Positions 13,059 to 51,878 of a stretch of DNA of 60,914 bases are shown piece by piece. Position 1 is the first letter of the stretch; every line of letters starts with the position of its first letter. The stretch spans positions 1 to 60,914 of the forward strand of contig JAFUTR010000009.1 in NCBI GenBank assembly GCA_017477845.1, read 5' to 3'. The notes below the pieces were generated by a model. That model made no database searches and was not told where the DNA came from. It worked only from the letters and a program-made list of their open reading frames with translations. The stretch is from Bacilli bacterium. GTDB taxonomy: Bacteria; Bacillota_I; Bacilli_A; RF39; UBA660. The translations under genes were made by a program, and so were the position numbers.

Positions 13059-13065
13059 AATTCTC

Positions 13066-13902
13066 CTATTGTTTTATTATTATTTCTTTTCCATCTGAAT
13101 AAACATTTATCTTTCCATTTCTTGTTAGATAATATTTTATTTTATTATTTTTTAGTATATCAATTGTTTCATCACTTTCTTTTTCTTTGTTACTGCATGT
13201 TATAACTGCATAGCTTGGTTTAGTTATATTTACTAAGTTTTCAAATTGTTTTAGATAGTTTCCATGATATGGTACTTTTAAAAAATTATATGTGTTGTGA
13301 TATTCATCTAGGTAGTCTTTAATTCTATTATTTTCAGCATCTCCCATAAATAAGAAACTAGTATCATTATAAATAAGCGATGTTATAAGTGATGAATTAT
13401 TACTTTCATTAGAGTCATATATCTTATTTGGACCATTAACGGTTATTTTCATTTCTCTTAAATCTATTTCATAATCATTAGAAACTGTTATAGGAGTTAT
13501 ATTTTTATTATTTAATGCTTCTATATAATTATTATAATATGTGCTATCTTTGGGACTATTACTTTGTAAAACATTATCTACTTCAATATTGTTAATTATA
13601 TGTGATGCACTTCCTACATGATCTTTATCAAAATGAGTTATTATTAAATAATCAAGTCTCTTTATATTATTGTTTTTAAAATAGCTAAGAATATCGTCTT
13701 TAAGACTTTCTTCTCCAGTATCAATCATTATGTATTTATCATCTTTTGATACTAGAATTGCATCTGCTTTTCCTGCATCAAAAAAATATATTTTTAAAGC
13801 ATATTCTTTTTTATTTTTTAAATAAAAATATCCTATTATTAATAATAATATTAGTAATAATATAGAAATTATTATTATCAAACTTTCTTTTTCTATTTTC
13901 AT
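13066..13902 (-). CDS. membrane-anchored MBL-fold hydrolase (ComEC C-terminal-domain-like)
   Basis: N-terminal TM helix. Metallo-beta-lactamase motif ITHFDKDHVG and downstream VPYHG. Confidence 0.65.
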   Translation of the reverse strand: MKIEKESLIIIISILLLILLLIIGYFYLKNKKEYALKIYFFDAGKADAILVSKDDKYIMIDTGEESLKDDILSYFKNNNIKRLDYLIITHFDKDHVGSASHIINNIEVDNVLQSNSPKDSTYYNNYIEALNNKNITPITVSNDYEIDLREMKITVNGPNKIYDSNESNNSSLITSLIYNDTSFLFMGDAENNRIKDYLDEYHNTYNFLKVPYHGNYLKQFENLVNITKPSYAVITCSNKEKESDETIDILKNNKIKYYLTRNGKINVYSDGKEIIIKQ

Positions 13903-13940
13903 TTTTGCCTCCTTTTTAATTATAACATAAAAGGAAAAAA

Positions 13941-13959
13941 TCCTAGATTAATTCTAGGA
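13941..13959 (-). terminator. intrinsic terminator after the 132-aa ORF
   Basis: Minus strand: TCCTAGAATTAATCTAGGA followed by TTTTTTCC, immediately after the stop codon. Confidence 0.7.
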
Positions 13960-14358
13960 CTAATTAGCAAGTTTATATTCTATTTTATTATTGAAAAGAT
14001 CTGTGTAATCATCCATTATAGAAAGAGTGTTCATGTTCCCTACTTTTTCTACATAATTAAATGAATAATCATTTTTTATATCATCTTTGTATTTTACAAA
14101 ATACCATTTTTCATAAGAGGAATCAGTAATAACTGGCATTTTTTTAAATCCAAAGTATTCATATAATATATCAAAAACTATTTTTTTTATTATTGAGTCT
14201 TTTTTTAAATCATCAATAAACTCTTCAAATGTACAATCTATATCAAATATTTCTTTAAATTTTTCTTTCATGTTTACTGTTAATACAATTGAAATGAATT
14301 TATTTTTTACTGAAGGATACAAGTATAATCCTTTTAATACTTTATCAAAATTATTCAT
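13960..14358 (-). CDS. hypothetical protein (132 aa), second gene of the WYL-linked module
   Basis: ATG lies 2 nt after the stop of the 190-aa ORF, with AAAGGAAG RBS inside the upstream coding end. No family recognised. Confidence 0.55.
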   Translation of the reverse strand: MNNFDKVLKGLYLYPSVKNKFISIVLTVNMKEKFKEIFDIDCTFEEFIDDLKKDSIIKKIVFDILYEYFGFKKMPVITDSSYEKWYFVKYKDDIKNDYSFNYVEKVGNMNTLSIMDDYTDLFNNKIEYKLAN

Positions 14359-14360
14359 AG

Positions 14361-14933
14361 TTATGCTATCTTCCTTTCTATTTTCTTTACGAAATTATAA
14401 ACATATTTTTTTATTCCATTTTTTATGATGTATATTCCATTGTTATCTTTATCTAAATCATCTACTCTTGTATGAAATATGATATCGTTATCTATGGTTT
14501 TATAAGTCTCATTATTTAAACTTTTTATTTGTTTATTAGATTTATTCTTGTTTTCCATCTCTTCAATATATCTATTTAAATCTAATAAAGCTTCTTCATA
14601 TTTGCTATCCATATCATAATAAGAATTATCGCTATTCTCATAATCATAAAATTCTATATGATTTCTACTTATTGAAAGACTTCTTTTTCTTGTAATAATT
14701 AGATGTGAAATTCTAAAATTGCAATCTTTAAATATAGCTTTTAAATCATCAATTTTGTATGATAATAATTTATCTTTATAATATTTAAAGAAATTATTTA
14801 CCATATTGTTATCTGATAGTATTTCTCCATCTTTTACTTCAAGCATTCTTTCATCGGTATAAAAGTTTCCCCCAAAATAGTTATTTAATTTGTAAGTGTT
14901 TTTTACTTCCATGTAATAATCAATCTTTTTCAT
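14361..14933 (-). CDS. hypothetical protein (190 aa), first gene of the WYL-linked module
   Basis: TAGGAGGA RBS. No TM helix or known motif. Confidence 0.55.
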   Translation of the reverse strand: MKKIDYYMEVKNTYKLNNYFGGNFYTDERMLEVKDGEILSDNNMVNNFFKYYKDKLLSYKIDDLKAIFKDCNFRISHLIITRKRSLSISRNHIEFYDYENSDNSYYDMDSKYEEALLDLNRYIEEMENKNKSNKQIKSLNNETYKTIDNDIIFHTRVDDLDKDNNGIYIIKNGIKKYVYNFVKKIERKIA

Positions 14934-14991
14934 AATATCCTCCTATCATTTAAAAACCATTATACTTATTTTATTTTTATAAACAATATAA

Positions 14992-15006
14992 CTGGTCACA
15001 GAATGT
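14992..15006. promoter_or_regulatory. candidate operator copy 1 (TGGTCACAGAATGTA)
   Basis: 14/15 identical to 16299-16313. Lies between the WYL-gene terminator and the 190-aa ORF. Confidence 0.45.
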
Positions 15007-15067
15007 AAGTTGACAAAATTTTGACAAAAAATCGCAAAAAAAACATTACTCAAAATTAGTAATGCTT

Positions 15068-16051
15068 TTATGTGTTTTTTAAATAATTTTTTATTATTTT
15101 TTCGATTTCTCTTTTAAGTGAAATAGGACTAATTACTTTTACCATGTCTAAATTTCTAAGTACATATCTTTTAAAACCTTCCATGTCTTTATTTACTTTT
15201 AGGCTAAAATGGTCTTTATCAACAAATCTAATTGTGGATGTTTCTCCAAATAAATCTATTACATTATCCAAAAGTTTCATATCACATATAACTTCTATTA
15301 TTTCACCAGTTGATCCAAACATTGATACAGTTGATTTGACAAAATCATCAACATCTTTTGAAGTTATTTTATCATTAACTTTTTCTTTAGTAATATTAAT
15401 GTTTTTCATTCTATCAATTCTATATGTATATAGATTTTTCTTTCCATCTTTTAGTCCTACTACATACATCTCTTGTAACTGATATACAATTGCGTATGGA
15501 GATATTGTTCTTTCTCCAGTGTTCACATTCTTTAGAAGTGGATTTAATTCATATTTATAATAGTCAAATTTTATTTTCTTTTTGTTATATATTGCTTCTG
15601 TAATATCTTCAATATTTTTAACTATTTCTATATTTTTTGACTTATTGCTATCTGAGTATACCCTGTAATCTTTAAGTTTTTCATTTTCATAAACATTTTG
15701 CATATTTTTACATTTACTAATAATTTCTTTTGAAATTGATTCAGGAATAAAAGTTGAATAAGAAAAAGTATCTATAATGGCTCTTAATTCTCCACTTTCA
15801 AAATCCATATCAGGATTTTTCAAAAGATAATATCCTGTTCTATTATCATTCCATGTTTCAATATCATAATCTAATTTTTCTTTTAATAAATTAATATTTC
15901 TTCTAATAGTTCTTGGATCAATTTCTACATCATACAGTTCTTTAACATAATTTTTAATATCACTTATTTTTAATAAATGATCCACATTTGAATATTTTTT
16001 TAATACATTTAAAATATATAAAATGTTACCATTTTGTTCATAAAGTTCCAT
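15068..16051 (-). CDS. WYL-domain transcriptional regulator (HTH-WYL-C-terminal extension)
   Basis: N-terminal winged-HTH-like region, central WYL-type block ISPYAIVYQLQEMYVVGLKDGKKNLYTYRIDRM, and a C-terminal domain. Confidence 0.7.
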   Translation of the reverse strand: MELYEQNGNILYILNVLKKYSNVDHLLKISDIKNYVKELYDVEIDPRTIRRNINLLKEKLDYDIETWNDNRTGYYLLKNPDMDFESGELRAIIDTFSYSTFIPESISKEIISKCKNMQNVYENEKLKDYRVYSDSNKSKNIEIVKNIEDITEAIYNKKKIKFDYYKYELNPLLKNVNTGERTISPYAIVYQLQEMYVVGLKDGKKNLYTYRIDRMKNINITKEKVNDKITSKDVDDFVKSTVSMFGSTGEIIEVICDMKLLDNVIDLFGETSTIRFVDKDHFSLKVNKDMEGFKRYVLRNLDMVKVISPISLKREIEKIIKNYLKNT

Positions 16052-16059
16052 ATAAACTC

Positions 16060-16236
16060 CTACTCATATAAAAAATCAAATTTACTTCTTTTTACTCTTT
16101 TGAAATACTTTTTTAAACTTGTAATAAAATCAATTGCTTTTAAATAATCAGTACTATTTAATTCACTTAAATCAACAGATGTATTCTTTTTTCTTTTTGT
16201 AACCATCAATATTTCCTCATAACTTTTTAATATCAT
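16060..16236 (-). CDS. small hypothetical protein (58 aa) upstream of the WYL regulator
   Basis: AAGGAGG RBS 8 nt before the ATG of MILKSYEE. That start is preferred over the ORF-track start at 16305. The stop is 8 nt before the WYL gene ATG. Confidence 0.45.
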   Translation of the reverse strand: MILKSYEEILMVTKRKKNTSVDLSELNSTDYLKAIDFITSLKKYFKRVKRSKFDFLYE

Positions 16237-16298
16237 AATATAATCCTCCTTAATGATAAAAGTATTATAAATAATTAAAAAAAGAGAAACAATTCTAT

Positions 16299-16313
16299 TG
16301 GTCACACAATGTA
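16299..16313. promoter_or_regulatory. candidate operator copy 2 (TGGTCACACAATGTA)
   Basis: On the minus strand it directly follows an extended -10 (TGTTATAAT) upstream of the 58-aa/WYL operon. Confidence 0.45.
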
Positions 16314-16406
16314 TTATAACACATTAATAGTTCTAGTAAAATACTAGAACTTACATTATTTTACATTAATATTAATTCAAAGAAAAATAGGAAGAAAAAT
16401 TTCTTC

Positions 16407-19400
16407 CTATTGTAATAAAGATCCTTTAACTACATTAGAGTTACTAGACTTTGTTGCAATTATATAATCGATATTTGTTGTAGTGCTAGAGTAATTAACT
16501 GTTATTAATGCACTAGAGTCTGTTGCTGCATTATTAAATGCACCAGTATATGTTGTCGGATTACTATATATAGAAAGAGTTGCTTTTGCTTTTTTAGAAT
16601 ATGTAAACATATTAGTAATACTTGCATCATACACCTTTAATGTACCAATGCTATTAAACGTTGTAGCATTAGATCCTGCATAATAAAACATTTGATTCAT
16701 TGTTGTTACTTTTGATGTGTCCCAATTACTTAAATCTCCGATGTTCCATGTTGAAGCACTTCGCCCTGCATCTTGAAACATAGATGTCATATTTGTTACG
16801 TTTGATGTGTCCCAATTGCTTAAATTTCCAATACTCCATGTTGTGCTACTATATCCTGTAAGAGTGAACATACCATACATATTTGTTACACTTGATGTGT
16901 CCCAATTACTTAAATCTCCTATACTCCATGTTGAAGCACTTCGCCCTGCAGAAGAAAACATATTTTCCATACTTGTTACACTTGATGTGTCCCAATCACT
17001 TAAATCTAAAATAAATGTTGAAGCACTATAGCCTGCATCAACAAACATTTGATTCATTGCTGTTACACTTGAGGTATCCCAATTACTTAAATCTCCGATG
17101 TTCCATGTTGAAGCACTATAACCTGCTCTATTAAACATATTATCCATTGTTATTACACTTGAGGTATCCCAATTACCTATATCTAAATTGAATGTTGTGG
17201 AGTTATAGCCTGCAGATGAAAACATAGATGACATATCTGTTACATTTGATGTATCCCAATTACTTAAATCTCCTATACTCCATGTTGTGGCACTATAGCC
17301 TGCTTGTCTAAACATAGTTTCCATATTTGTTACCCTCGAGGTGTTCCAACTGCTTAAATCTAAACCAAATGTTGAAATGCTATAACCTGCTCGAAAAAAC
17401 ATAGATGACATATTTGTTACATTTGATGTGTTCCAATTACTTATATTTCCTATATTCCATGTTGTGGCACTATAACCTGCAGCATTAAGCATAGATTGCA
17501 TATTTGTTACATTTGATACATCCCATGAACTTAAATCTAAATAAAATGTTGAAGCTTTATATCCTGCTAAAGAAAACATAGATTCCATTGTTGTTACACT
17601 TGATGTGTCCCAATTACTTAAATCTCCGATGCTCCATGATGTGGCACTATAGCCTGCTCGATTAAACATACCATACATATTTGTTACACTTGATGTGTCC
17701 CAATTACTTAAATTTCCTATACTCCATGTTGTGGCACTTCGTCCTGCCTCAGAAAACATACTATGCATATATTTTACATTTGAGGTATCCCAATTACTTA
17801 TATTTCCTATACTCCATGTTGTAGCACTATAGCCTGCATCAGAAAACATAGCATGCATAATTGTAACACTTGAAGTATCCCAATTACTTATATTTCCGAT
17901 ACTCCATGTTGTAGCACTATAGCCTGCGCCAGAAAACATATTTTCCATTGTTGTTACACTTGATGTGTCCCAATTACTTAAATCTCCGATGCTCCATGAT
18001 GTGGCACTATAGCCTGCTCGATTAAACATACCATACATATTTGTTACACTTGATGTGTCCCAATCACTTAAATCTATATTAAATGTTGTCGCACTTCGTC
18101 CTGCATTATAAAACATAACAGGCATATTTGTTACACTTGATGTGTCCCAATTACTTAAATTTCCTATACCCCATGTTGTGGCACTTCGTCCTGCAGAAGT
18201 AAACATTTGATTCATTGTTGTTACACTTGATGTGTCCCAATCACTTAAATCTAAATTAAATGTTGTGGCATTATAACCTGCATAAGAAAACATAGATTCC
18301 ATATTTGTTACACTTGAGGTGTTCCAAGTATTTATATCTAAATTAAATGTTTGGGATTTGTACCCTGCATAAGAAAACATAAATGCCATATTTGTTACAT
18401 TTGATGTATCCCAATCACTTAAATCTCCAATACTCCATGTTGTTGCACTGTACCCTGTATTATTAAACATTTTTTGCATATCTTTGACTTTTGATGTATT
18501 AAAATTATTTAATCCAGTTATATTAAATGAAGCTGCATTATATCCAGTATTATAAAACATATATTTCATATTTCCTACTAATGATGTAATATAATTCGAT
18601 AAATCTATTGTAGTTACATTTTTAAAATTGGAAAACGCATAGCTACTATTTGGATTTGCTATTACTCCTCCATCTTGTCCTATATATAATTCATATTTTC
18701 CGTTTGAATCATCATCTTTATACCATGCCATTACACTTCCATTTTGTGTCTCTGATACATCCCACGAATCTATTGCATTACTTGGTACTGTTTTATTATT
18801 TACAGTAGTTATTGATTCAAAAATATCTCTTGATATTGCCTTTCCAAAAGTTGAACCAATTCCACCGTTATGTTTCATAAGTGTGTTTGTAGTTACTGGT
18901 AAATCTACCACATATGGATTTGTCATAGATCCATCACCAGTGATATATTCTATTCCTTCTATTAATGATATTACTGGTCTTATACTATTAGTAATATGGG
19001 ATGTACTAATAATACCACCTGATAAAATTGTATTAAAGAATAGTGAGGAATCGTTATAATTAGGTGATATAGTATAATAAGTATTTGTATTTTTTCTTAC
19101 ATTATTGTTATTTAACAGGTTCATTTCTGGTGCTGATATTAGTCCTACTTTATAAGTAAGCTTAGCACTATTATTGGATGCACTAAATTTATCAGTTATA
19201 TTTGTACAAATTAAATCACCTGTCGGTATATTTTCTTTAAATATTAAATTATTACTAATAGTTGTTGATCCTCCGTTTGGATTCCAGTTTTCTCCAACTG
19301 TTGTTACTGTTCTATCATTACAATATATTGTATCATCAATATATGTATTATATCCTGCAAGTAGCTTATCTTGATACCATTCGTCTATTTTTCCTTTTAT

Positions 19401-38511: not shown

Positions 38512-38558
38512 GTTATTATATAAGGGTTTGCGGAGGTTTTAAAATTTTAAAAAGTCGT

Positions 38559-38579
38559 TTAGGTAGCAATTAGGTAGCA
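38559..38579 (+). repeat. attL-like direct repeat TTAGGTAGCAATTAGGTAGCA
   Basis: 20/21 identical to 51703-51723. Consists of two tandem TTAGGTAGCA units. The integrase gene starts about 75 bp away. Confidence 0.7.
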
Positions 38580-43283: not shown

Positions 43284-43306
43284 CAATTTTGAAAGGAGTG
43301 AATAAG

Positions 43307-43810
43307 ATGAATGAAACAGTAGGTGAAATAATAGCAAAAGCTCGTGAAGAAAAAGGAATTTCTAAAAGGGAACTTGCTCGTATTGCTGATATAAGTGATA
43401 CAGAACTTTCTCGTATTGAATCTGGTGAGAGAGAATTTCCTAATCCTAAAACATTAAGAAAGATAAGTCAGCATATAGGAGTTAATTTTAATGATTTAAT
43501 GTATGCTGCTGGACTTGGTTTTAGTGTTTCACCCCTTAATCCATTTTTAATTGATTATTATTCTGGACTTAAAGGTGAAAAATTAGATGAGGCATTAATT
43601 AATACTCTTGGTAGTATTGATAATTGGAAAGAATTAGTTGACTCACTTAAAACAAAAATGGATAATGGAAGTTTATCAGATAGTGAAAAAGAAGTTATCG
43701 GTCAAACGATTGAAGATACTGAATATCAAATTAATACTGCAAATGAAATTGTAAAACTAATACATAGTGCAAAAACGAAAGAGAGGATAGAAAATGGTAA
43801 GAAAGGATAA
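43307..43810 (+). CDS. XRE-family HTH regulator
   Basis: HTH_3 signature IIAKAREEKGISKRELARIADISDTELSRIESGER. The ATG at 43307 follows AGGAG. Confidence 0.8.
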   Translation: MNETVGEIIAKAREEKGISKRELARIADISDTELSRIESGEREFPNPKTLRKISQHIGVNFNDLMYAAGLGFSVSPLNPFLIDYYSGLKGEKLDEALINTLGSIDNWKELVDSLKTKMDNGSLSDSEKEVIGQTIEDTEYQINTANEIVKLIHSAKTKERIENGKKG

Positions 43811-44237
43811 ATATATTAATTTAGCGATTATTGTTTCTAATATAGTGATGTTAATAGATGTAATACTTATATTTATTTTAAATAATAATGTTGTTTATTC
43901 ATTATATTGGTTATTAATTTTAATGATAATGCTTGCAAATACTTTCTTTATAGGTAAATGGACAAGAGATGGTAATAATGTAGAAAAAAAACAATCAAAA
44001 ATAATTCATAGATCTGTCGATGATGCTTTAATGATTGCAACAGGCATTTATTATTTATCGGCATTGGCATTTATGTTTATTAAAGAAATTAAACCTGAAT
44101 ATTCACAGAATATTTACTTTATAATTGCATTATATATACTAACAATAATTTATGAAGAACTTATATACTTACAAGTATATGGTGCAAAAAAAGAAACAAG
44201 AAAATTAATAGAAAAGACTTATAAAAAGAAAAAATGA
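43794..44237 (+). CDS. 4-TM membrane protein
   Basis: Overlaps the XRE gene end by 17 nt. Four hydrophobic helices. Confidence 0.55.
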   Translation: MVRKDKYINLAIIVSNIVMLIDVILIFILNNNVVYSLYWLLILMIMLANTFFIGKWTRDGNNVEKKQSKIIHRSVDDALMIATGIYYLSALAFMFIKEIKPEYSQNIYFIIALYILTIIYEELIYLQVYGAKKETRKLIEKTYKKKK

Positions 44238-44482
44238 CGGCAATGACAGGAAAAATCAGGTGGTACCCACCAAAAAAATGCTGTCATGCTGTCATTAATA
44301 TAATTTAAATCATTTAATGGTTCTGATTAATAAAGTTATTAAAATCTTTATTGCAGAGCTATTTTTTATATTTTAAATACTGAATATTGCTTTTTGTAAA
44401 AAAACTGTGCTATAATTATTTTGGAAATCGTAGGAATATTTTTGAAAACTTCCTACACTTTCCAAAGAAAGAAGGTATGTAT

Positions 44483-45025
44483 ATGATAATGACTTATAGT
44501 GATGCTTATAAAAAATATAAGAATGATTATGGCATAAATAAAGCCATGATGAATAATGAATTATTTAAAGTAGCAAAAGGTATGTATTCTGATAAAAAGA
44601 ATATTGATTTAATTGCAGTATATTCTAAAAAATATCCTAATGCTATTATTACACTTGATTCGGCTTTTTATTATTATAAATTGACCGATAATATTCCAAC
44701 AAAAGTAAATATGGCTATTGCAAGACATGCAAGACCAATTAAAGATGATGATATTATTGTTTCTTATATTGATGATGAAATAGTGGATTATGGTAAGACA
44801 GAAGTTTTAGTTGATGATGAAAAAGTTAATATATATGATAAAGAACGATTGTTAGTTGAATTGATTAGAAAGAAAAATCAAATGCCTTTTGATTATTATA
44901 AAGAATTAATATCTAATTATCGAAAAATTTCTGATGAATTGGATATGGCTAAAATCGAGAAATATATGGCATTATTTAAAAATGAGGTTAATATAGGTAA
45001 CAGTTTATTAAGAGAGGTATTTTAA
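44483..45025 (+). CDS. AbiEi-family type IV antitoxin
   Basis: N-terminal AbiEi_4-like segment TYSDAYKKY...ELFKVAKGMYSD. 1-nt TAATG overlap with the AbiEii gene. Start chosen 7 nt after GAAGG; the ORF-track start at 44387 is less likely. Confidence 0.6.
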   Translation: MIMTYSDAYKKYKNDYGINKAMMNNELFKVAKGMYSDKKNIDLIAVYSKKYPNAIITLDSAFYYYKLTDNIPTKVNMAIARHARPIKDDDIIVSYIDDEIVDYGKTEVLVDDEKVNIYDKERLLVELIRKKNQMPFDYYKELISNYRKISDELDMAKIEKYMALFKNEVNIGNSLLREVF

Positions 45026-45852
45026 TGAATATAGATGAATTAATTACTAAATATCGTGAAGAAGGATATCCTCTTGCTGATGCGAGATCTTCTGCATGCC
45101 ACGATATTATTTTATCTAAAATTTTTAAGAGTAAATTTAAAGAACACATAACTATTAAAGGTGGTGTAGTTATGCACAATATATCTAATTCAATGCGTAG
45201 AGCAACGCAAGATTTAGATATGGATTTTATTAAATATTCCTTAAAAGATGATTCTATTAAACAGTTTATAAGTAAATTAGATAAGGTTGACGATGGTATT
45301 AAAGTTGAAATTTTAGGAAATATTGAAGAATTAAAACATCAAGATTATTCTGGAAAAAGAGTTTTTATAAAAATATCTGATAATTATGGAAATTCACTAG
45401 AAAATAAAATTGATTTAGGTGTTCAAAAAGAGTTTGATATTGAACAAGACGAATACTACTTTAATTTAAATTCAATTGATGGTAGTATTTGCTTGTTGAT
45501 AAACTCAAAAGAGCAAATATTCACAGAGAAATTAAAATCATTATTAAAATTAGGCTTTAGATCTGGACGACATAAAGATTTATTTGATTTTTATTATTTA
45601 ATAAATGATGCTAAATTAGATAAACACAAATTACTTAAATGTATTGATGTTTTAATCTTTCAAGATGATAAAATGAGAGAGAATAGTATTAGTGATATTT
45701 ATTCAAGACTTGATGGTGTATTTTCGTCAAGAGTTTATAGAAGTAATTTAAATAACCCTAAAAATAATTGGTTAGATATTAGAATTGATGATGCAATAGA
45801 ATCTGTACTTAATTATGTAAATGAATTATCAGAAGAATTTGTTGCAATTTAA
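45025..45852 (+). CDS. AbiEii/AbiGii-family nucleotidyltransferase toxin
   Basis: 275 aa. Size, gene order and IKGGVVM...TQDLDMDF (NTase G-x-D-x-D-like) fit the AbiEii family. Confidence 0.6.
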   Translation: MNIDELITKYREEGYPLADARSSACHDIILSKIFKSKFKEHITIKGGVVMHNISNSMRRATQDLDMDFIKYSLKDDSIKQFISKLDKVDDGIKVEILGNIEELKHQDYSGKRVFIKISDNYGNSLENKIDLGVQKEFDIEQDEYYFNLNSIDGSICLLINSKEQIFTEKLKSLLKLGFRSGRHKDLFDFYYLINDAKLDKHKLLKCIDVLIFQDDKMRENSISDIYSRLDGVFSSRVYRSNLNNPKNNWLDIRIDDAIESVLNYVNELSEEFVAI

Positions 45853-45879
45853 AAAGAAATAGTATGAAACTTGCACATA

Positions 45880-46332
45880 CTATTTTTTATTTATAAATTT
45901 ATCCTTACTTCTACCTAACACCCAATCAATAGAATAATTACTAATTTTGCATAACTCTATTAATAAAGGACTTAATATTAAATACTTATTATTTTCATAA
46001 TTACTAATAGCTGATGAAGTAGTATTAAATTTACTTGCTAATTCTCTCATTGTTATATTTAAAGAATCTCTTATTTCCTTTAAATTAATAGATACTTGTT
46101 CTCTATTTAATTCTTTATTTGATTTAATATGTAATCTTTTATCGTTTAAACCTACAATATAATCAATATTAACCTCAAAGAATTCGGCTAATTCATATAA
46201 TCTTTTAGTTGCTATCGATAATTTCTCATTTTCCCATTCAGAATAAACTGATGGAGCAACGCCAATAATGTTAGCAACATCTTTCTTTAATAAATTTCTT
46301 TCATCCCTTAATTTTTCTAATCTCAAATTCAT
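45880..46332 (-). CDS. double-HTH XRE-family regulator
   Basis: Two HTH_3-like units: LRDERNLLKKDVANIIGVAPSVYSEWEN and IRDSLNITMRELASKFNTTSSAISNYEN. Confidence 0.75.
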   Translation of the reverse strand: MNLRLEKLRDERNLLKKDVANIIGVAPSVYSEWENEKLSIATKRLYELAEFFEVNIDYIVGLNDKRLHIKSNKELNREQVSINLKEIRDSLNITMRELASKFNTTSSAISNYENNKYLILSPLLIELCKISNYSIDWVLGRSKDKFINKK

Positions 46333-46449
46333 AATAACTCCCATATCTATAAGTTATTATGATATTAAATTCGGTTAATTTTAGCGTTTTTTCGTCATAT
46401 TTGAGCAAAGTGTGATATAATTGTATATAGAGTTGAGGTGAAAAATAGT

Positions 46450-46686
46450 ATGAAAAATGAAATTACAAAAGAAAAATATGAAGCAAATATTCATTTAAAT
46501 ACCTTATATGATGTATTAAGTGCATTAAGAGCTAATGGTATTAAACAATTCTATCCTGATGATATTAATGATGAAATTGATAGGATAATATCAAGAATAA
46601 ATAGCTATATTTATCACGGTCACAATGGATATGATGTTATTGCTGAAAAATGGTATTCTGAATTTACTTTTAAGAAAAACGATTAA
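46450..46686 (+). CDS. hypothetical protein (78 aa)
   Basis: GAGGTG RBS. Extended -10 TGATATAAT upstream. No family recognised. Confidence 0.45.
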   Translation: MKNEITKEKYEANIHLNTLYDVLSALRANGIKQFYPDDINDEIDRIISRINSYIYHGHNGYDVIAEKWYSEFTFKKND

Positions 46687-46817
46687 CTGTAAAAAATGTA
46701 AATTTGCTTTATATTTTTTGGTGGATTAAATTGATTATATATTTTATATATGGTACTATATTGTTGAGAAAAATAATTTCAGTGAAGTATTGGTAATTTT
46801 TTTTAAATGAGGTAAAT

Positions 46818-47651
46818 ATGATTGAAAGAATAATGAATTCAACAGAAGAAAATGTTGATGAGATAATTAAAACAATAATTAATGAATTAGACAATAAAGC
46901 AAATAAAGTTGAAAGATTAGGATTTTTAGATTCAATTAGTTCAAATCCGGTATATAAGGGATTTATTCCTCTTAATACAAGGATTAAGTATTCTAATTTT
47001 GGTGTTGAAGATTATAGTATGAAAACGACGGATTTTATATACGAATTTATTAAAAATATTAAAAAATATAATCTAACGAATAAAGGACAAATAATTCATT
47101 TTTTGGAATACTATATTAATACTTATTTTGGTTTACCTGGTGGTATCAGTAGAGAAACTTTATTCAATGACATTGCTTGGAATACAACTACAACAGATGA
47201 TGAATATTTTGCTGCTTTAGAGAAAAATGAAATTGGTATGTTAAAGAATAAACGAGCTGCACAATGTACTGAACGAAGTGCTGTGGCTCAACAAATATTA
47301 AGTGTATTAGGTTTTGAAACATTTTATTGTATGGGTTGTGTTGATTTAGGCAATAATCATCAAGAACCACATTGTTTCAATATTATTAAAAGAAAAAATG
47401 ATTATGCTTTGGTTGATTATAGTTGCCCAATTACAGAGTATAATGAAGATAATAGTGTTAGAGCATATTATCCTTTTATTGCAACACTATCCAATGATGA
47501 GTTTACTGATTTTTTGAATAACGGTGTAATTAAAAGTTTTACAAATTATAGTTATGAAATAAAAAATGGAAAAAGTGTAAGAATTGATGATGATAGTAGT
47601 AGGTCTTATGTGGTAGGACAATATGAAATAAAAAAAGAAAATCAAAAATAA
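46818..47651 (+). CDS. hypothetical protein with a transglutaminase/papain-like Cys-His-Asp arrangement
   Basis: RAAQCTERSAVAQQILSVLGFETFYCMGCV...HQEPHCFNIIKRKNDYALVDYS reproduces the G-x-C...H...D spacing of transglutaminase-like cysteine peptidases. No signal peptide. Confidence 0.45.
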   Translation: MIERIMNSTEENVDEIIKTIINELDNKANKVERLGFLDSISSNPVYKGFIPLNTRIKYSNFGVEDYSMKTTDFIYEFIKNIKKYNLTNKGQIIHFLEYYINTYFGLPGGISRETLFNDIAWNTTTTDDEYFAALEKNEIGMLKNKRAAQCTERSAVAQQILSVLGFETFYCMGCVDLGNNHQEPHCFNIIKRKNDYALVDYSCPITEYNEDNSVRAYYPFIATLSNDEFTDFLNNGVIKSFTNYSYEIKNGKSVRIDDDSSRSYVVGQYEIKKENQK

Positions 47652-47735
47652 TCTACTAAATTAATAAAAAAATGATAAAAAATGCGTAAATTTTTATGTA
47701 AATTTAGTATAGTTTTAAAATGTAAAAAAAAATTA

Positions 47736-47744
47736 TGGTATAAT
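47736..47744 (+). promoter_or_regulatory. extended -10 promoter element of the effector cassette
   Basis: TGGTATAAT lies about 25 nt upstream of the GGAAGGAG RBS of the first cassette gene. The -35 is weak. Confidence 0.45.
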
Positions 47745-47769
47745 TGATAATAGGAAGGAGAATTTTGAA

Positions 47770-48060
47770 ATGGGACGAGTTCATGTAGAAGAAGCAGCTT
47801 TAGTCAATCTAAAAAATGACTTTGGAACTGTTGGAGAAAGTTATAAAGCTAATTATACTAAACTAACTAATTTAATTAGTGAAATTACTTCTGGACATAT
47901 CCAAGGTGATCCTGCAAATGAATTATTGCAAAAATATGAAGAAAAGAAAGAAGCTTTTGAAAAGGTGTATGAAATGATTAATTCAACACAGGAATATGTA
48001 AACGGAAGAACAGAACAATTTGTTAATGATGTTGATTCATTAATGAAAAATATGAAATAG
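47770..48060 (+). CDS. WXG100/Lap-like small helical protein (96 aa)
   Basis: Size and helix-turn-helix layout fit. A central IQGDPA occupies the position of W-x-G. First gene of the coupled cassette. Confidence 0.45.
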   Translation: MGRVHVEEAALVNLKNDFGTVGESYKANYTKLTNLISEITSGHIQGDPANELLQKYEEKKEAFEKVYEMINSTQEYVNGRTEQFVNDVDSLMKNMK

Positions 48061-48069
48061 GAGGAAAAT

Positions 48070-48342
48070 ATGAATTTAACGATTTTACCAGACGCAGCTT
48101 TAGATGATGCAAAGAGTATTGACTCTATTGTTCAAGAAATAAGTAATAGTTTGGAGATATTGGATAAAGCAATTAAAAACAATATTCCTGAACATTTAGA
48201 AACAGAGTGGTCTGTTAAGTTATTAGAAAATTGGAATGAATACTATAGTGGAAATATTAAAAATGCAATGGCTGCAATGAATTTAAGTGCTTCTAACTTA
48301 AAAAGTGCTGTTGATATGGCTGTAAATTATAGTAAAATGTAA
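48070..48342 (+). CDS. second small helical T7SS-accessory-like protein (90 aa)
   Basis: 90 aa, predicted all-helical. TAGGAGG RBS 9 nt after the upstream stop. Confidence 0.4.
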   Translation: MNLTILPDAALDDAKSIDSIVQEISNSLEILDKAIKNNIPEHLETEWSVKLLENWNEYYSGNIKNAMAAMNLSASNLKSAVDMAVNYSKM

Positions 48343-48356
48343 AAATGGAGGATCAT

Positions 48357-48740
48357 ATGATTGATGAGTCATTATTATCAGTTGGTTCTTGTGTAAAAAT
48401 TGCAAATAACTCTAAAATGATTATGATAGCTGGTTATTTGCCTTATGATAATCAAAAAAAAATAATGTATGATTATATCGGTATATATCTTCCGATTGGT
48501 ATAAGAAAACCTAGACAAAAAATAGAAGTAAATAAAGACTATATTTGCTTTAAAAATAGTGATATTAAAAAGATTATTTTTATTGGTTATTCGGATAAAA
48601 AATCGGATTTTTATTGTAAATATTTATTAAATATTAAAAATAAAATTAGAAATATGAATACAGAGTTATCTGATGAAGTAGTAAAAAATATTTTGAAAGA
48701 TTCTTTACCTGATATAAAAAATATAAAAAGTGAGGTATAA
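48357..48740 (+). CDS. DUF4176-like protein, paralog 1
   Basis: LLSVGSCVKI...MYDYIGIYLPIGI...DIKKIIFIGYSD. Carries an extra C-terminal ~45 aa. Confidence 0.6.
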   Translation: MIDESLLSVGSCVKIANNSKMIMIAGYLPYDNQKKIMYDYIGIYLPIGIRKPRQKIEVNKDYICFKNSDIKKIIFIGYSDKKSDFYCKYLLNIKNKIRNMNTELSDEVVKNILKDSLPDIKNIKSEV

Positions 48741-48744
48741 ATAA

Positions 48745-49002
48745 ATGAATAATAAGATTTTGCCGATTGGTAGCATTATTAAAATGAGTAATAGTGATTT
48801 GTATTTAATGATTTATGGATATGCTAATAGCAAGAAAAACATAGATGGTGAATACTATGATTATTTTTGTTGTATTTACCCTGCTGGAATTAATGGTAAA
48901 GATTCAATATTAGTAAAAAAAGAAAAAATAGAAAAAATAATTTTTATAGGATATCAAGATTCAAAGTTTGAAAATTTTGTTGAACTTTTGGAACAGCAAT
49001 AA
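48745..49002 (+). CDS. DUF4176-like protein, paralog 2
   Basis: ILPIGSIIKM...YYDYFCCIYPAGI...KIEKIIFIGYQD. Confidence 0.65.
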   Translation: MNNKILPIGSIIKMSNSDLYLMIYGYANSKKNIDGEYYDYFCCIYPAGINGKDSILVKKEKIEKIIFIGYQDSKFENFVELLEQQ

Positions 49003-49016
49003 TGGATGGTGATTTA

Positions 49017-49265
49017 ATGAAAAAAACTCTACTACCTATTGGAACAGTTATAAAAGTATATAATAATGATAATAAATATATTGTTTTGGGAACATTCTGT
49101 AAGGTAGATAATAAAATGTTTACTTATTATGGCTGCATATATCCATATGGTTTAATACTCGATGATAGTGATGAAAGTAAAAAAATAAAAAAATATGATA
49201 TATATATAGATCAAAATGATATTGAGAAAATTATTTTTTTAGGAAATGTAAATAGTGAGGTATAG
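49017..49265 (+). CDS. DUF4176-like protein, paralog 3
   Basis: LLPIGTVIKV...FTYYGCIYPYGL...DIEKIIFLGN. Confidence 0.6.
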   Translation: MKKTLLPIGTVIKVYNNDNKYIVLGTFCKVDNKMFTYYGCIYPYGLILDDSDESKKIKKYDIYIDQNDIEKIIFLGNVNSEV

Positions 49266-49267
49266 TT

Positions 49268-49714
49268 ATGGCATATTCTCAAAGGTATTATGCTGCAGTG
49301 CAGGAAATTGATAATTTAAAAAAGCATTTAGCAGATTTGGATTCTGATTATGCAACATTGCACGAGTGCAAACAAAAATTAGCTTCTTGTAGTGTCCTTT
49401 TTGGTGATGTATCAACTCAATGTGATGATATAAATAGAGCATTTAATAGAGGAACAATAGAAGGAAGATATGATGCTTGTGGAATAGATTTTAAAACTAA
49501 AAAAGATGTTTTTGAATATTTAGAGATTATTGGTTCTTCAACAAACAAGTTTAACTCATCTTGTAATGATGTTAAAACACAAATAGACGAATTCGGTGCA
49601 TCATTAGATGGCTATTGCAAAGATATAGCGAATGAAGCACAAGTTGTTTCAGATAAGATAAATAGCTTGATGTCCCAATTAGTATATTTAATGGAGCCAG
49701 AACCACCTAAATAA
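49268..49714 (+). CDS. helical Cys-rich protein (148 aa), possible effector partner/targeting subunit
   Basis: Coiled-coil-like N-terminus and 7 Cys. 2-nt gap from the upstream gene and 22 nt before the toxin candidate. Confidence 0.4.
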   Translation: MAYSQRYYAAVQEIDNLKKHLADLDSDYATLHECKQKLASCSVLFGDVSTQCDDINRAFNRGTIEGRYDACGIDFKTKKDVFEYLEIIGSSTNKFNSSCNDVKTQIDEFGASLDGYCKDIANEAQVVSDKINSLMSQLVYLMEPEPPK

Positions 49715-49736
49715 TATAGTATATATGGAGAGTTAT

Positions 49737-51035
49737 ATGAGTGATGTATTTAGTAGTAATATTAGCCCTTCCGAAATGGCTGAAATGAATATGGAAGATG
49801 CCAAACAAATTGATGTTGCTTTGGGAGTTATAATTAATGAGATGCCAAGTCGGATTGCTTTTGCAAAAAATATGCTTGATGATGTTGCAACAAGCATTAA
49901 GTCATTAAAAACATTAAATCTAGGTTTTAATATAAATGGTGAAGTTGAAAATTTAGCTAAAGATTTTGATACCTTTTCACAAGAAGTTATAAATAATGCA
50001 AGTTATTATGAATTAAATATTGTAAAAATAATAGATATATTTGATAGACAAAATAGTTTAGATGGTTCATCAACTATTGATAATAATTATTTTAAGAGTT
50101 TACCATTTCTTGGTGCAATGCTATTAACTGTATTAAAGTATGCTACTAATACTAGACGAGGTGATTTAGCTCCACAAATTGCAGTTGATGTTTCAGGCAA
50201 TTGGATGGATAGGGATTTTAATGAAGCTATTGGTGCAGTTGCATATAATGCAACTGAATGGCTTCCTTGGAGCTCTTTAGGAAAAAATGGTGTTGCTGTT
50301 GCAGCATTAATAACAGTTGAATCTTTATATGATTATTTAAAATTAGGAAATAAGGATCCTAGAAATGTAAGAATTAATTTAATAAATGCAGCAGGTGATG
50401 GTGTTAAACTTCTTGGTGGAAATTTGATAGCAGATTATGTGGCAGTTGATGCTGGTACAGCAGTATCAACATGGGTAGCGACTAAATTGGCAGGTTTTGG
50501 TGGTGCAAAAGTAGCTGGAGGATTAGCTGGTGGAGCGGTAGGAGTTGGTATTGTTGTATTGGGTGAAGTGACAATCGATTTAGTTGTATCACCATTGGTT
50601 GATGAAATAACAGGTGAATCATTTGTTTATATGACATCAATTCAAAAAAATGGTGGAGAAAGGCGATTATATTCAAATTATGTAAATCAAATTCAACATA
50701 GTTATATTAGTCCACTTGGTAGAACAACATCTCTTTATGGTATAACTGTTTCTCCTGAATATTGTCACGAAATGGCACAAATCGATCCTGTAGGAACATT
50801 ATTAGGATTAGATGAATATGGGTATAGTGAAACTTCATATAGCACAACACAATTAGAAAGTTATATATCTGATTTAAAAGCAATTCCAAAAGATAGTCCT
50901 AATTTTCAAGAACAAGTTGATCAATTAACTGCAAATGCGCTGATTGGTGATGGTTCAGGATATGGAACAGATTATATTAGAGATTTATTATATGATTTAG
51001 ATTTTGATCCATATAGTTATGCTATTAATAATTGA
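49737..51035 (+). CDS. candidate secreted membrane-active toxin with a glycine-zipper region
   Basis: ~115-aa helical N-terminal domain (contains TLNLG). Hydrophobic Gly/Ala-rich core LAGFGGAKVAGGLAGGAVGVGIVVLG (nt ~50388-50594) with a GxxxGxxxG pattern. Polar C-terminal ~140 aa. Confidence 0.5.
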   Translation: MSDVFSSNISPSEMAEMNMEDAKQIDVALGVIINEMPSRIAFAKNMLDDVATSIKSLKTLNLGFNINGEVENLAKDFDTFSQEVINNASYYELNIVKIIDIFDRQNSLDGSSTIDNNYFKSLPFLGAMLLTVLKYATNTRRGDLAPQIAVDVSGNWMDRDFNEAIGAVAYNATEWLPWSSLGKNGVAVAALITVESLYDYLKLGNKDPRNVRINLINAAGDGVKLLGGNLIADYVAVDAGTAVSTWVATKLAGFGGAKVAGGLAGGAVGVGIVVLGEVTIDLVVSPLVDEITGESFVYMTSIQKNGGERRLYSNYVNQIQHSYISPLGRTTSLYGITVSPEYCHEMAQIDPVGTLLGLDEYGYSETSYSTTQLESYISDLKAIPKDSPNFQEQVDQLTANALIGDGSGYGTDYIRDLLYDLDFDPYSYAINN

Positions 51036-51048
51036 TAAAGGAGAATGT

Positions 51049-51381
51049 ATGAATTTAGATGGTAAAAATGATGATTATTTTGAAATAAAAAAAATAAGCA
51101 TTGAAGAATTTGATAAACAAGCGAAAAAAGAAAAAGCTGGTGTATTAAGGCGTAGTATAGCAGTTGCTGTAATGAGTGTTGCTACTTCTGCAATACTTGG
51201 AACAAGTGGCTACAATCCATTTTTAGCATTTGCTCAACTATACACTCTACCAATAGCTATGGTAGTTATTTCGGATATAAAAATATTATCAAAATTGAAG
51301 CAAAAAAGAATGCAAATTATGAATGAATCAAGATATGATAATATGGAATCTGAAAATATTAATAGAGGTAAAAAATTATGA
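51049..51381 (+). CDS. 2-TM membrane protein, candidate immunity protein
   Basis: AAAGGAGAA RBS. TM segments SIAVAVMSVATSAILGT and FLAFAQLYTLPIAMVVISDI. Lies immediately downstream of the toxin candidate. Confidence 0.45.
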   Translation: MNLDGKNDDYFEIKKISIEEFDKQAKKEKAGVLRRSIAVAVMSVATSAILGTSGYNPFLAFAQLYTLPIAMVVISDIKILSKLKQKRMQIMNESRYDNMESENINRGKKL

Positions 51382-51656
51382 TAGAAATTGGTGATGAATT
51401 TGATTTTAAGGGTGAAATTGGTATAGTATGTTTTAAAGGAAATTATTACAATCAGGATTATATATGTATTGCTTTTGAAAAAGAAGGGAAATTTGGCATT
51501 TACAAAGTTAAATATGAAGAAGATAAATATTTAGTAGCTGAAGAAAAAGATAAGGAAAAATGTGCATATGTTTTATCTGAATTTGTGACAGATGATATTA
51601 TCGAACATGGTGAAATAGATAAATTAGTAGAATTATTAAAGAAAAATGATGAATAG
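51378..51656 (+). CDS. hypothetical small acidic protein (92 aa)
   Basis: ATGA overlap with the upstream gene. Last gene before attR. Confidence 0.45.
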   Translation: MIEIGDEFDFKGEIGIVCFKGNYYNQDYICIAFEKEGKFGIYKVKYEEDKYLVAEEKDKEKCAYVLSEFVTDDIIEHGEIDKLVELLKKNDE

Positions 51657-51702: not shown

Positions 51703-51723
51703 TTAGGTAGCATTTAGGTAGCA
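51703..51723 (+). repeat. attR-like direct repeat TTAGGTAGCATTTAGGTAGCA
   Basis: 20/21 identical to 38559-38579. Confidence 0.7.
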
Positions 51724-51838
51724 AAATTTTAAAACTATAAAGTGAGAATATGATTTTATTTAAATTTTAGTAATTTAAAATGATAATAAAATAGACTTTT
51801 TATAAAAAAATGATATAAAAAAATGGCTCACTGAAAAG

Positions 51839-51878
51839 CCCCCTGAAGACACTGTCGTGAGACAGTGTCATTTTTTTT
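51839..51878 (+). terminator. intrinsic terminator preceded by CCCCCTGAAGA
   Basis: GACACTGTC-GTGA-GACAGTGTC followed by A and T8. Shares an 11-nt 5' motif with the terminator at 38470-38511. Confidence 0.7.

Follow-up and report, generated by a model that had tools for sequence, protein, structure and literature searches.

To our knowledge, the membrane-depolarising toxins of type VIIb secretion systems (T7SSb) are a recently recognised class of bacterial weapons, of which few representatives, namely TspA, TelD, TelE and EsxX, have been studied. TspA of Staphylococcus aureus is a depolarising toxin encoded away from the core secretion locus and adjoined by the gene of its membrane immunity protein TsaI, and TelD of Streptococcus intermedius GC1825 is thought to depolarise membranes since its immunity protein belongs to the same family as that of TspA (PMC10765036). 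TelD is stabilised by the small DUF4176 protein MQE10_09270 (PDB 9DCS); the DUF4176 proteins represent a chaperone family specific for T7SSb, and the small members were speculated to shield the membrane-inserting helices of depolarising toxins (PMC12478183). Large DUF4176 chaperones, as in the pairs TelA/LtcA and TelB/LtcB of S. intermedius B196, bind to a hydrophobic or amphipathic middle region of their toxins (PMC12478183). TelE of Streptococcus gallolyticus is a membrane-permeabilising toxin with a glycine zipper that is assembled into a pre-secretion complex of seven proteins; its operon specifies two helical Lap partners, a binder of the middle region, a membrane protein and soluble neutralisers, all of which are needed for stability and export (PMC10434224; bioRxiv 10.64898/2026.03.12.711312). 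The glycine-zipper toxin EsxX of S. aureus ST398 is likewise depolarising, with the soluble ExiAB proteins sequestering the zipper prior to export and the membrane proteins ExiCD protecting against incoming toxin (PMC12744356). The present analysis concerns a candidate toxin gene and its eight neighbours in a stretch of 60,914 nucleotides (the window) that represents contig JAFUTR010000009.1 of a Bacilli bacterium of the RF39 lineage.

The cassette consists of nine tightly packed genes (47770-51656); the candidate toxin gene occupies the seventh position, and the others are designated g1 to g6, g8 and g9. With a probability of roughly 0.6, the deduced protein is a membrane-attacking antibacterial toxin that would be exported by a T7SSb and that is encoded in a self-contained nine-gene operon on a mobile element. 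An earlier note, made from the nucleotide sequence alone, had proposed a pore-forming or depolarising toxin with an adjacent immunity protein of two transmembrane (TM) helices. This proposal is supported, because the gene was found in a conserved operon of the T7SS effector type with three DUF4176 genes, the genome encodes EssC, partners of the N-terminal part of the toxin were predicted, the zipper glycines are invariant in nine aligned sequences, and g8 always adjoins the toxin gene and diverges fastest; toxicity, depolarisation and protection are the properties that we infer from these features. The coordinates of all features are compiled in Table 1. Residues of the toxin are counted from the ATG at 49725, and four have to be subtracted to obtain positions in the 432-aa form.

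The list of open reading frames (ORFs) contains the toxin gene as an entry of 436 aa on the + strand (49725-51035). Since the stored gene call P0001 comprises 432 aa and a GGAGA ribosome-binding site precedes the ATG at 49737 by 5 nt (as read from the sequence), this start is likelier than that at 49725. The protein contains a single strongly hydrophobic segment at residues 260-293 (Kyte-Doolittle values up to 2.05), which overlaps with a ladder of small-xxx-small spacings at residues 232-273, and GxxxG spacings begin at positions 265, 266 and 269. Glycine accounts for 17.6% of residues 211-295, compared with a genome mean of 5.2%. The glycines G265, G269 and G273 lie inside the hydrophobic segment and are invariant in an alignment of nine toxin-family sequences (A1) that share 48-70% identity with the window protein. 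The same core was present in a later alignment of 12 sequences that included the most divergent relative, P0012, in which a short deletion affects the first glycine. As a hydrophobic GxxxGxxxG motif occurs in only six of the 1151 ORFs of at least 150 aa in this genome and the glycines are invariant in A1, the zipper is more than a chance occurrence. Judged by sequence, the family possesses a conserved (G/A/S)xxxGxxxG motif in a putative hydrophobic helix, and homology to a characterised depolarising toxin was not detected.

These results on the ORF, its ribosome-binding site and its hydropathy bear out the description of a 432-aa protein with a hydrophobic, Gly/Ala-rich core and consecutive GxxxG spacings given in the earlier note. 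The two shorter hydrophobic segments that had been placed upstream of the core correspond to the predicted helices 126-140 and 184-206, and the C-terminal ~140 aa, in which no motif had been recognised, indeed lack a Pfam or NCBIfam match. The structure prediction named there as a check was carried out and succeeded in part: the full-length AlphaFold model is all-helical and poor, with a pLDDT (predicted local distance difference test) value of 44, and the C-terminal domain was modelled with confidence (pLDDT ~90). A fold search with the full-length model yielded generic helical-bundle or G-protein-coupled receptor-like rows only (Z <=6.8), which were disregarded.

The N-terminal part of the toxin was modelled as a complex with the products of g1, g2 and g6, using toxin residues 1-125 and supplying each of the four chains as an alignment of eight loci. 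The resulting score was 0.80, compared with 0.14 for the best control. Of 80 solved complexes, 58 attained this mark, compared with two of 110 mismatched pairs, counts that are rough for a prediction with own alignments and four chains. Three runs of the complex agreed in at least 93% of the contacts, with partner pLDDT values of at least 80, and replacement of g6 by an unrelated protein reduced the score to 0.01. The modelled interface is formed mainly by toxin residues 6-114 and residues 20-123 of g6. Both ends of g1 (residues 1-12 and 80-96) contact the toxin N-terminus in the model, and g2 reaches the toxin only via residues 45-47 and 50. The prediction supports the view that the toxin N-terminus may be an LXG-like export handle with g6 as its specific adaptor: the model depicts an N-terminal helical domain that would bind small helical partners of the Lap type, and an LXG domain was not recognised in the toxin at the sequence level. 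The last N-terminal helix is followed by L112-D113-G114, a partly conserved stretch that might correspond to the canonical LxG motif; G114 is invariant and L112 is present in six of the nine A1 sequences, with S or F in the others.

The largest intergenic gap within the cassette is 22 nt. With no gap exceeding this value, a promoter-like site upstream and a terminator-like site downstream, the nine genes are arranged like a single operon. The nine genes were detected in identical order in seven of seven related metagenome contigs with full context (L007, L008, L014, L017, L026, L027 and L028), and they evidently behave as a unit, because this order is maintained despite unrelated flanks. The proteins encoded by g3 to g5 match PF13780 with 46.8-70.5 bits, above the cut-off of 25, and a profile of these paralogs matches the structure of the small DUF4176 protein 9DCS (9DCS_A) with an E value of 1.4e-13, which suggests that all three are DUF4176 proteins related to the solved one. 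The g1 protein attains 15.1 bits with the WXG100 profile (cut-off 27.3), g2 has no match, and both lack the W-x-G motif; g2 contains the invariant residues W47 and W55. A canonical export motif (FxxxD or YxxxD/E) was not present in g1, g2 or g6. The C-terminal arm of g1 carries the invariant residues F84 and D87, spaced i/i+3, and g6 shows a weak YwqH-like match (E 0.048).

These data bear on the possibility that the toxin gene is unrelated to a T7SS and encodes a membrane protein of the mobile element itself, such as a holin-like, entry exclusion or transfer protein, beside DUF4176 genes that would be there by coincidence. Such an origin is in line with the position of the cassette, which an integrase/relaxase element carries at a great distance from the EssC locus, and with the lack of an LXG or WXG100 match above cut-off in the cassette. 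It is nevertheless very improbable, since the nine-gene unit also resides between housekeeping genes and away from mobile-element genes in L014 and L008, DUF4176 is specific for T7SSb (PMC12478183) and the N-terminal complex prediction passed its controls.

Two variations of the cassette and its surroundings were observed. In L026 (5016-5186), the third DUF4176 gene is cut to a 56-aa ORF without a Pfam match and the remaining cassette is intact; judging by this locus, three chaperones may not be strictly required. Directly upstream of the cassette in the window, positions 46818-47651 encode a 277-aa protein of no known family, which has the same length and position in L007 and L027 and is not present in L008, L014, L017 and L026. 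This protein may belong to the module as an optional tenth component, or else to the element.

Table 1. Features of the candidate toxin cassette, the element that carries it and the secretion locus of the same genome
Feature	Position	Strand	Basis or remarks
Left end repeat of the element	38559..38579	.	10-mer TTAGGTAGCA in duplicate
Promoter-like site (TTAAAA, 18 nt, TG-TATAAT) 5' of the first cassette gene	47715..47744	+	consensus scan, 10/12 matches, extended -10; pattern match only
g1, helical protein of 96 aa with weak likeness to WXG100; candidate targeting factor or co-secreted protein	47770..48060	+	WXG100 E 0.029
g2, 90-aa helical protein, predicted partner of g1	48070..48342	+	no family match
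g3, small DUF4176 protein, 131 aa, C-terminal helical extension	48345..48740	+	PF13780 E 3.9e-15
g4, small DUF4176 protein, 85 aa	48745..49002	+	PF13780 E 1.2e-19
g5, small DUF4176 protein, 87 aa	49002..49265	+	PF13780 E 3.2e-12
g6, 148-aa helical protein, predicted main partner of the toxin N-terminal domain (Lap-like)	49268..49714	+	complex model
Candidate toxin, 432 aa (436 aa from start 49725)	49737..51035	+	ORF list, stored gene call P0001, ribosome-binding site
Putative helical targeting domain, toxin residues 6-114	49740..50066	+	predicted helices 15-59, 74-108; complex interface
Putative membrane region, toxin residues 116-295, hydrophobic, small-residue-rich	50070..50609	+	predicted helices 126-140, 184-206, 212-254, 261-295; hydropathy
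Glycine-zipper core G265-x3-G269-x3-G273	50517..50543	+	invariant in nine A1 sequences
C-terminal domain, toxin residues 335-436, compact, helical	50727..51032	+	model m1158fea175a2, pLDDT ~90
g8, 110-aa protein, 2-TM hairpin, best immunity candidate	51049..51381	+	hydropathy, position, divergence
g9, 92-aa soluble protein	51378..51656	+	ORF list; no family
Right end repeat of the element, 47 nt past the last cassette gene	51703..51723	.	10-mer TTAGGTAGCA twice
Terminator-like hairpin and T-run 3' of the cassette	51848..51869	+	sequence scan
T7SSb core locus	L006 (contig C44) 7819-18251	-	EssC 12621-17228, with FHA domain

The gene g8 directly follows the toxin gene in all loci. It has an AGGAGA site of its own, and its ORF lies within a longer frame with a TTG start. 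The earlier note had assigned two TM helices to this 110-aa protein, and two hydrophobic helices were found at residues ~36-53 and 59-77, linked by a conserved G-x-N-P-F turn and flanked on both sides by K/R-rich stretches. Residues G54, P57 and P68 are invariant across 25 homologs, and the protein is probably a helical hairpin with both ends in the cytoplasm. The further claim of the earlier note that such a protein is the expected form of an immunity factor stands in part: a 2-TM protein is a plausible candidate, whereas the known immunity proteins are polytopic with five to six TM helices and/or soluble DUF5085 proteins (PMC12744356, PMC10434224). The earlier note did not take the next gene, g9, into account. 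The stop codon of g8 overlaps the start codon of g9 by 4 bp (51378-51381, ATGA), which suggests translational coupling and a fixed g8:g9 stoichiometry. Neither protein belongs to a Pfam or NCBIfam family, including DUF443, DUF5079/5080 and DUF5085. For g9, alignment with DUF4176 (hhalign) gave a probability of 0.4% and indicated no relation, the PDB sequence search returned nothing below E 0.09, the Atlas feature search gave scores of <=0.81 without a lead, and the search for orphan copies in genomes yielded only borderline matches (E ~1e-3). Of the two proteins, g8 is the best candidate for a membrane-embedded immunity factor, and by analogy with ExiAB and TipE g9 may take part in immunity, either alone in the cytoplasm or together with g8.

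The relative rates of divergence, calculated as mean pairwise identity over eight loci, differ markedly within the cassette. They identify g1 as the most conserved gene (78%), followed by g2 (72%) and then by g3 to g5 (62-71%) and g9 (67%), and g8 as the fastest-diverging gene (42%), with g6 (45%) and the toxin gene (53%) in between. A comparison of the window with L007 gave 99% identity for g1 and g2, 64% for g6, 67% for the toxin and 54% for g8. Correlations of divergence between genes (r 0.77-0.96) carry little information, as all genes are linked. The toxin, g6 and g8 thus form a fast-evolving core, a pattern that diversification of a toxin along with its specific adaptor and its immunity protein would produce and that does not amount to proof.

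The same pattern is relevant to the suggestion that the protein is a membrane-inserting T7SS substrate without antibacterial function, i.e. a surface or membrane protein of the producer or an intercellular signal, with g8 and g9 as assembly partners. One T7SS toxin operon was proposed as a biofilm signal in a preprint (bioRxiv 10.1101/2023.08.02.551746), orphan immunity genes or immunity arrays were not found for the cassette, and the toxin evolves as one unit without domain swapping. This suggestion is unlikely, however, because the fast co-divergence of toxin, g6 and g8 fits antagonistic diversification better than a housekeeping role, and the sporadic and mobile cassette, which is absent from 400 other genomes of the order, is typical of weapons of competition. 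Furthermore, the characterised glycine-zipper substrates of T7SSb are all toxic (PMC10434224, PMC12744356).

When the C-terminal domain was modelled separately, a small helical bundle resulted, with pLDDT values of ~90 over residues 335-436. A fold match was not obtained, neither by Foldseek against the PDB (E >=1) nor with VIA (Z <=5.0) or the ESM Atlas (TM <=0.37). The best VIA-wide match was an archaeal virus coat protein (Z 5.0, 79 residues aligned), and no fold was assigned on this basis. In the C-terminal part, invariant positions are occupied by G, T, I, N, L, Y, S, P, D, V and F; the lack of invariant His, Cys, Glu, Lys and Arg argues against an enzymatic toxin domain. These properties have to be considered with regard to an alternative that assigns membrane translocation, with chaperones bound, to the central hydrophobic region and toxicity in the cytoplasm of the target to the C-terminal ~100 aa, with g9 as immunity protein and g8 as an accessory factor. 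A possible role in translocation was proposed for the hydrophobic or amphipathic middle domains to which DUF4176 proteins bind in LXG toxins (PMC12478183), no part of the toxin other than the C-terminal domain was folded with confidence, this domain is as conserved as the rest, and a soluble, conserved protein, g9, is encoded downstream. Nevertheless, the invariants are devoid of the residues expected of a nuclease, NADase, deaminase or ADP-ribosyltransferase, no enzyme fold was matched, and the domain was not found in other architectures at E <=0.001 in a profile search of 1.84 billion representatives, unlike the modules of polymorphic toxins. In addition, the chaperones are of the small DUF4176 type that is tied to membrane-depolarising toxins (PMC12478183), and g9 is far more conserved than the toxin that it would have to neutralise. 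Altogether, an intracellular C-terminal toxin appears improbable, and an attack on the membrane remains the preferred explanation.

Homologs of the toxin are rare. Nine were identified among 5.8 billion clustered proteins, and an exhaustive profile search of 1.84 billion proteins recovered six representatives of the family. All relatives are metagenomic and, according to contig labels and sequencing-run records, come from animal-gut samples. The sequencing runs with a full match were gut-metagenome DNA of a single study, from which the window itself may originate, with no RNA run listed. The toxin was absent from the 200 genomes of the family and 400 genomes of the order that were searched, a pattern scan of 185,579 species genomes detected no relative, and tblastn returned no match in plasmids and phages. 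The toxin has no Pfam match at E <=1 and no relevant NCBIfam match, and the PDB sequence search with its profile gave nothing below E 0.27. Its nearest neighbours in a language-model comparison were LXG clusters (0.92) and a Gly-zipper_Omp cluster (0.91), which is regarded as a lead only. Judging from these searches, the toxin represents an orphan and previously undescribed family. Apart from P0013, an N-terminal fragment of 108 aa, the relatives are full-length, and their divergence is even across the N-terminal, the two middle and the C-terminal regions (mean identity 44-49%). The toxin is therefore not a domain-swapping polymorphic toxin, and an exchange of the toxin domain between different N-termini was not observed.

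The window itself contains no secretion machinery. The genome to which it belongs (1.56 Mb, 96% complete) encodes on contig C44 an EssC protein that matches TIGR03928 with 1059 bits (cut-off 778) and includes an FHA domain. Several WXG100 genes, a gene for a 391-aa protein without family assignment and a fourth DUF4176 gene are located downstream of essC; the locus altogether comprises four genes of the WXG100 type and further specifies proteins of 528 aa and 308 aa without family assignment. Full-length EssC was detected in four of five related genomes checked, i.e. in three of three from the same genus and in one of the two that represent other genera of the family. In contrast to this prevalence of EssC, LXG domains are nearly absent from the lineage: PF04740 has no match anywhere in this genome and scored above cut-off in only one of 150 family genomes. 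Unannotated families seem to supply most of the T7SS substrates in this small-genome lineage, and a lineage-conserved secretion machine would be combined with a sporadic, mobile effector cassette. The association of the toxin with T7SSb would follow from the DUF4176 genes, EssC and the predicted complex taken together. At the EssC locus itself, an 83-aa protein is suggestive of YukD by size and position. In the 391-aa protein (L006 8929-10104), residues 293-313 form a hydrophobic segment rich in Gly and the tail is rich in Pro, Ala and Ser; its gene is followed by the small DUF4176 gene (L006 8583-8888). This protein may be a second membrane-active effector; as a relative of the cassette toxin it was rejected, the two proteins being dissimilar (BLASTP E 0.9).

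The cassette represents the right-hand cargo of an integrative mobilizable element of ~13 kb. The element carries genes for an integrase, a Mob_Pre relaxase and an AAA_25 protein, all of which adjoin the left end repeat, as well as an AbiEii gene. The 13-nt chromosomal flanks of the element are reverse complements of each other (ends 38536-38579 and 51703-51736, read from the sequence). A common backbone was observed in L027 (1-7623) and the window (43289-51656), consisting of a helix-turn-helix (HTH) gene, a divergent double-HTH regulator, an ORF of ~80 aa, the 277-aa protein and the cassette, and in L027 a gene encoding a Fic domain takes the place of the AbiEi/AbiEii pair of the window. The element appears to swap its defence cargo and to keep the effector cassette.

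Several observations weigh against a membrane-attacking T7SSb toxin. Glycine zippers are frequent in ordinary membrane proteins, and the helices of the membrane region are of low confidence, given the pLDDT value of the full-length model. The zipper is central and followed by a conserved folded domain, instead of being C-terminal as in TelE and EsxX. A sequence relation of the toxin to PF04740, TelE, EsxX, TspA or other families was not detected by profile and PDB searches, which were used in place of pairwise comparison with the TelE, EsxX and TspA sequences, and the profile search of 1.84 billion proteins recovered the toxin's own family only. The score of the N-terminal complex could partly reflect the model's memory of, or likeness to, solved LXG-Lap bundles. 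With respect to immunity, g8 has two TM helices, whereas the known membrane immunity proteins are polytopic, orphan copies were found in none of 200 family genomes, and all g8 homologs whose upstream context can be read are preceded by a toxin gene. Searches of the genome for the EssB/YukC, EsaA and YukD families were negative, two being empty and one giving a sub-threshold match of 21 bits; because of these missing components the secretion machine would have to be atypical, diverged or partly unassembled.

If the candidate is nevertheless a membrane-attacking toxin, the cassette could function as follows. The N-terminal domain (residues ~6-114) would pack with g6 into a long helical bundle, the ends of which are touched by g1, and this Lap-like complex would deliver the toxin to the EssC ATPase in a manner resembling the LXG-Lap 'stalk', with a sequence that is not LXG. 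The three small DUF4176 proteins would keep the toxin helices soluble and the toxin stable in the producer until export. After export, the region ~116-295 might insert into the membrane of a neighbouring bacterium, where the zipper helix could oligomerise to an ion channel or pore that leads to the collapse of the membrane potential. Protection would be provided in the membrane by g8, and g9 would either work together with g8 or neutralise the toxin in the cytoplasm. Beyond this, although it is rather improbable, one might regard the cassette as a new, self-sufficient and mobile class of T7SSb weapons with a non-LXG targeting domain and a fast-evolving 148-aa adaptor, three DUF4176 proteins each shielding one hydrophobic helix, a two-compartment immunity formed by a 2-TM and a soluble protein, and a new C-terminal module, for instance for target recognition or channel gating.

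The significance of the cassette lies in its apparent use of the same logic as the known depolarising T7SSb toxins with parts that have no detectable sequence relation to them. It was found in an uncultured, small-genome lineage of the animal gut, and as a compact and linked nine-gene system it is suited to the examination of two ideas put forward in 2025, namely the chaperoning of pore-type helices by DUF4176 proteins and the separation of cytoplasmic and membrane immunity. The location of the cassette within an integrative mobilizable element indicates that entire sets of effector, chaperones and immunity proteins might be transferred horizontally to any host that already possesses the secretion machine.

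A comparison with the individual systems reveals both likenesses and differences. With the TelD system the cassette shares the small DUF4176 proteins, as evident from the match of g3 to g5 to 9DCS, whereas TelD has an LXG domain, one small DUF4176 protein and polytopic DUF443 immunity proteins, compared with no LXG match, three tandem paralogs and a 2-TM and a soluble protein in the cassette. The gene order of helical targeting factors, DUF4176 and toxin matches that of TelA and TelB, whose Ltc chaperones of 200-250 aa differ in that one is present per toxin and the toxins act in the cytoplasm, as opposed to three small paralogs of 85-131 aa. Like TelE, the candidate toxin is a glycine-zipper protein encoded in one operon with helical partners; TelE (514 aa), however, comprises an LXG domain at residues 1-195 and a zipper at residues 458-480 near the C-terminus, whereas the zipper of the cassette toxin is located at residues 265-273 and additional ~140 aa are present. 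The partners of TelE, i.e. a 220-aa binder of the middle region, a 6-TM protein and DUF5085 proteins, were not found in the cassette, and sequence similarity was not detected. The location of the toxin gene far from the secretion core and next to a membrane protein gene resembles TspA/TsaI, although TsaI is a polytopic DUF443 protein encoded in tandem arrays, TspA is described as an LXG toxin and no sequence relation to the cassette toxin was detected. [quoted passage not shown] The cassette is accordingly distinguished from the TelD, TelE, EsxX and TspA systems by its central zipper, the C-terminal domain of the toxin, three tandem DUF4176 genes, a 2-TM candidate immunity protein and its location on a mobilizable element.

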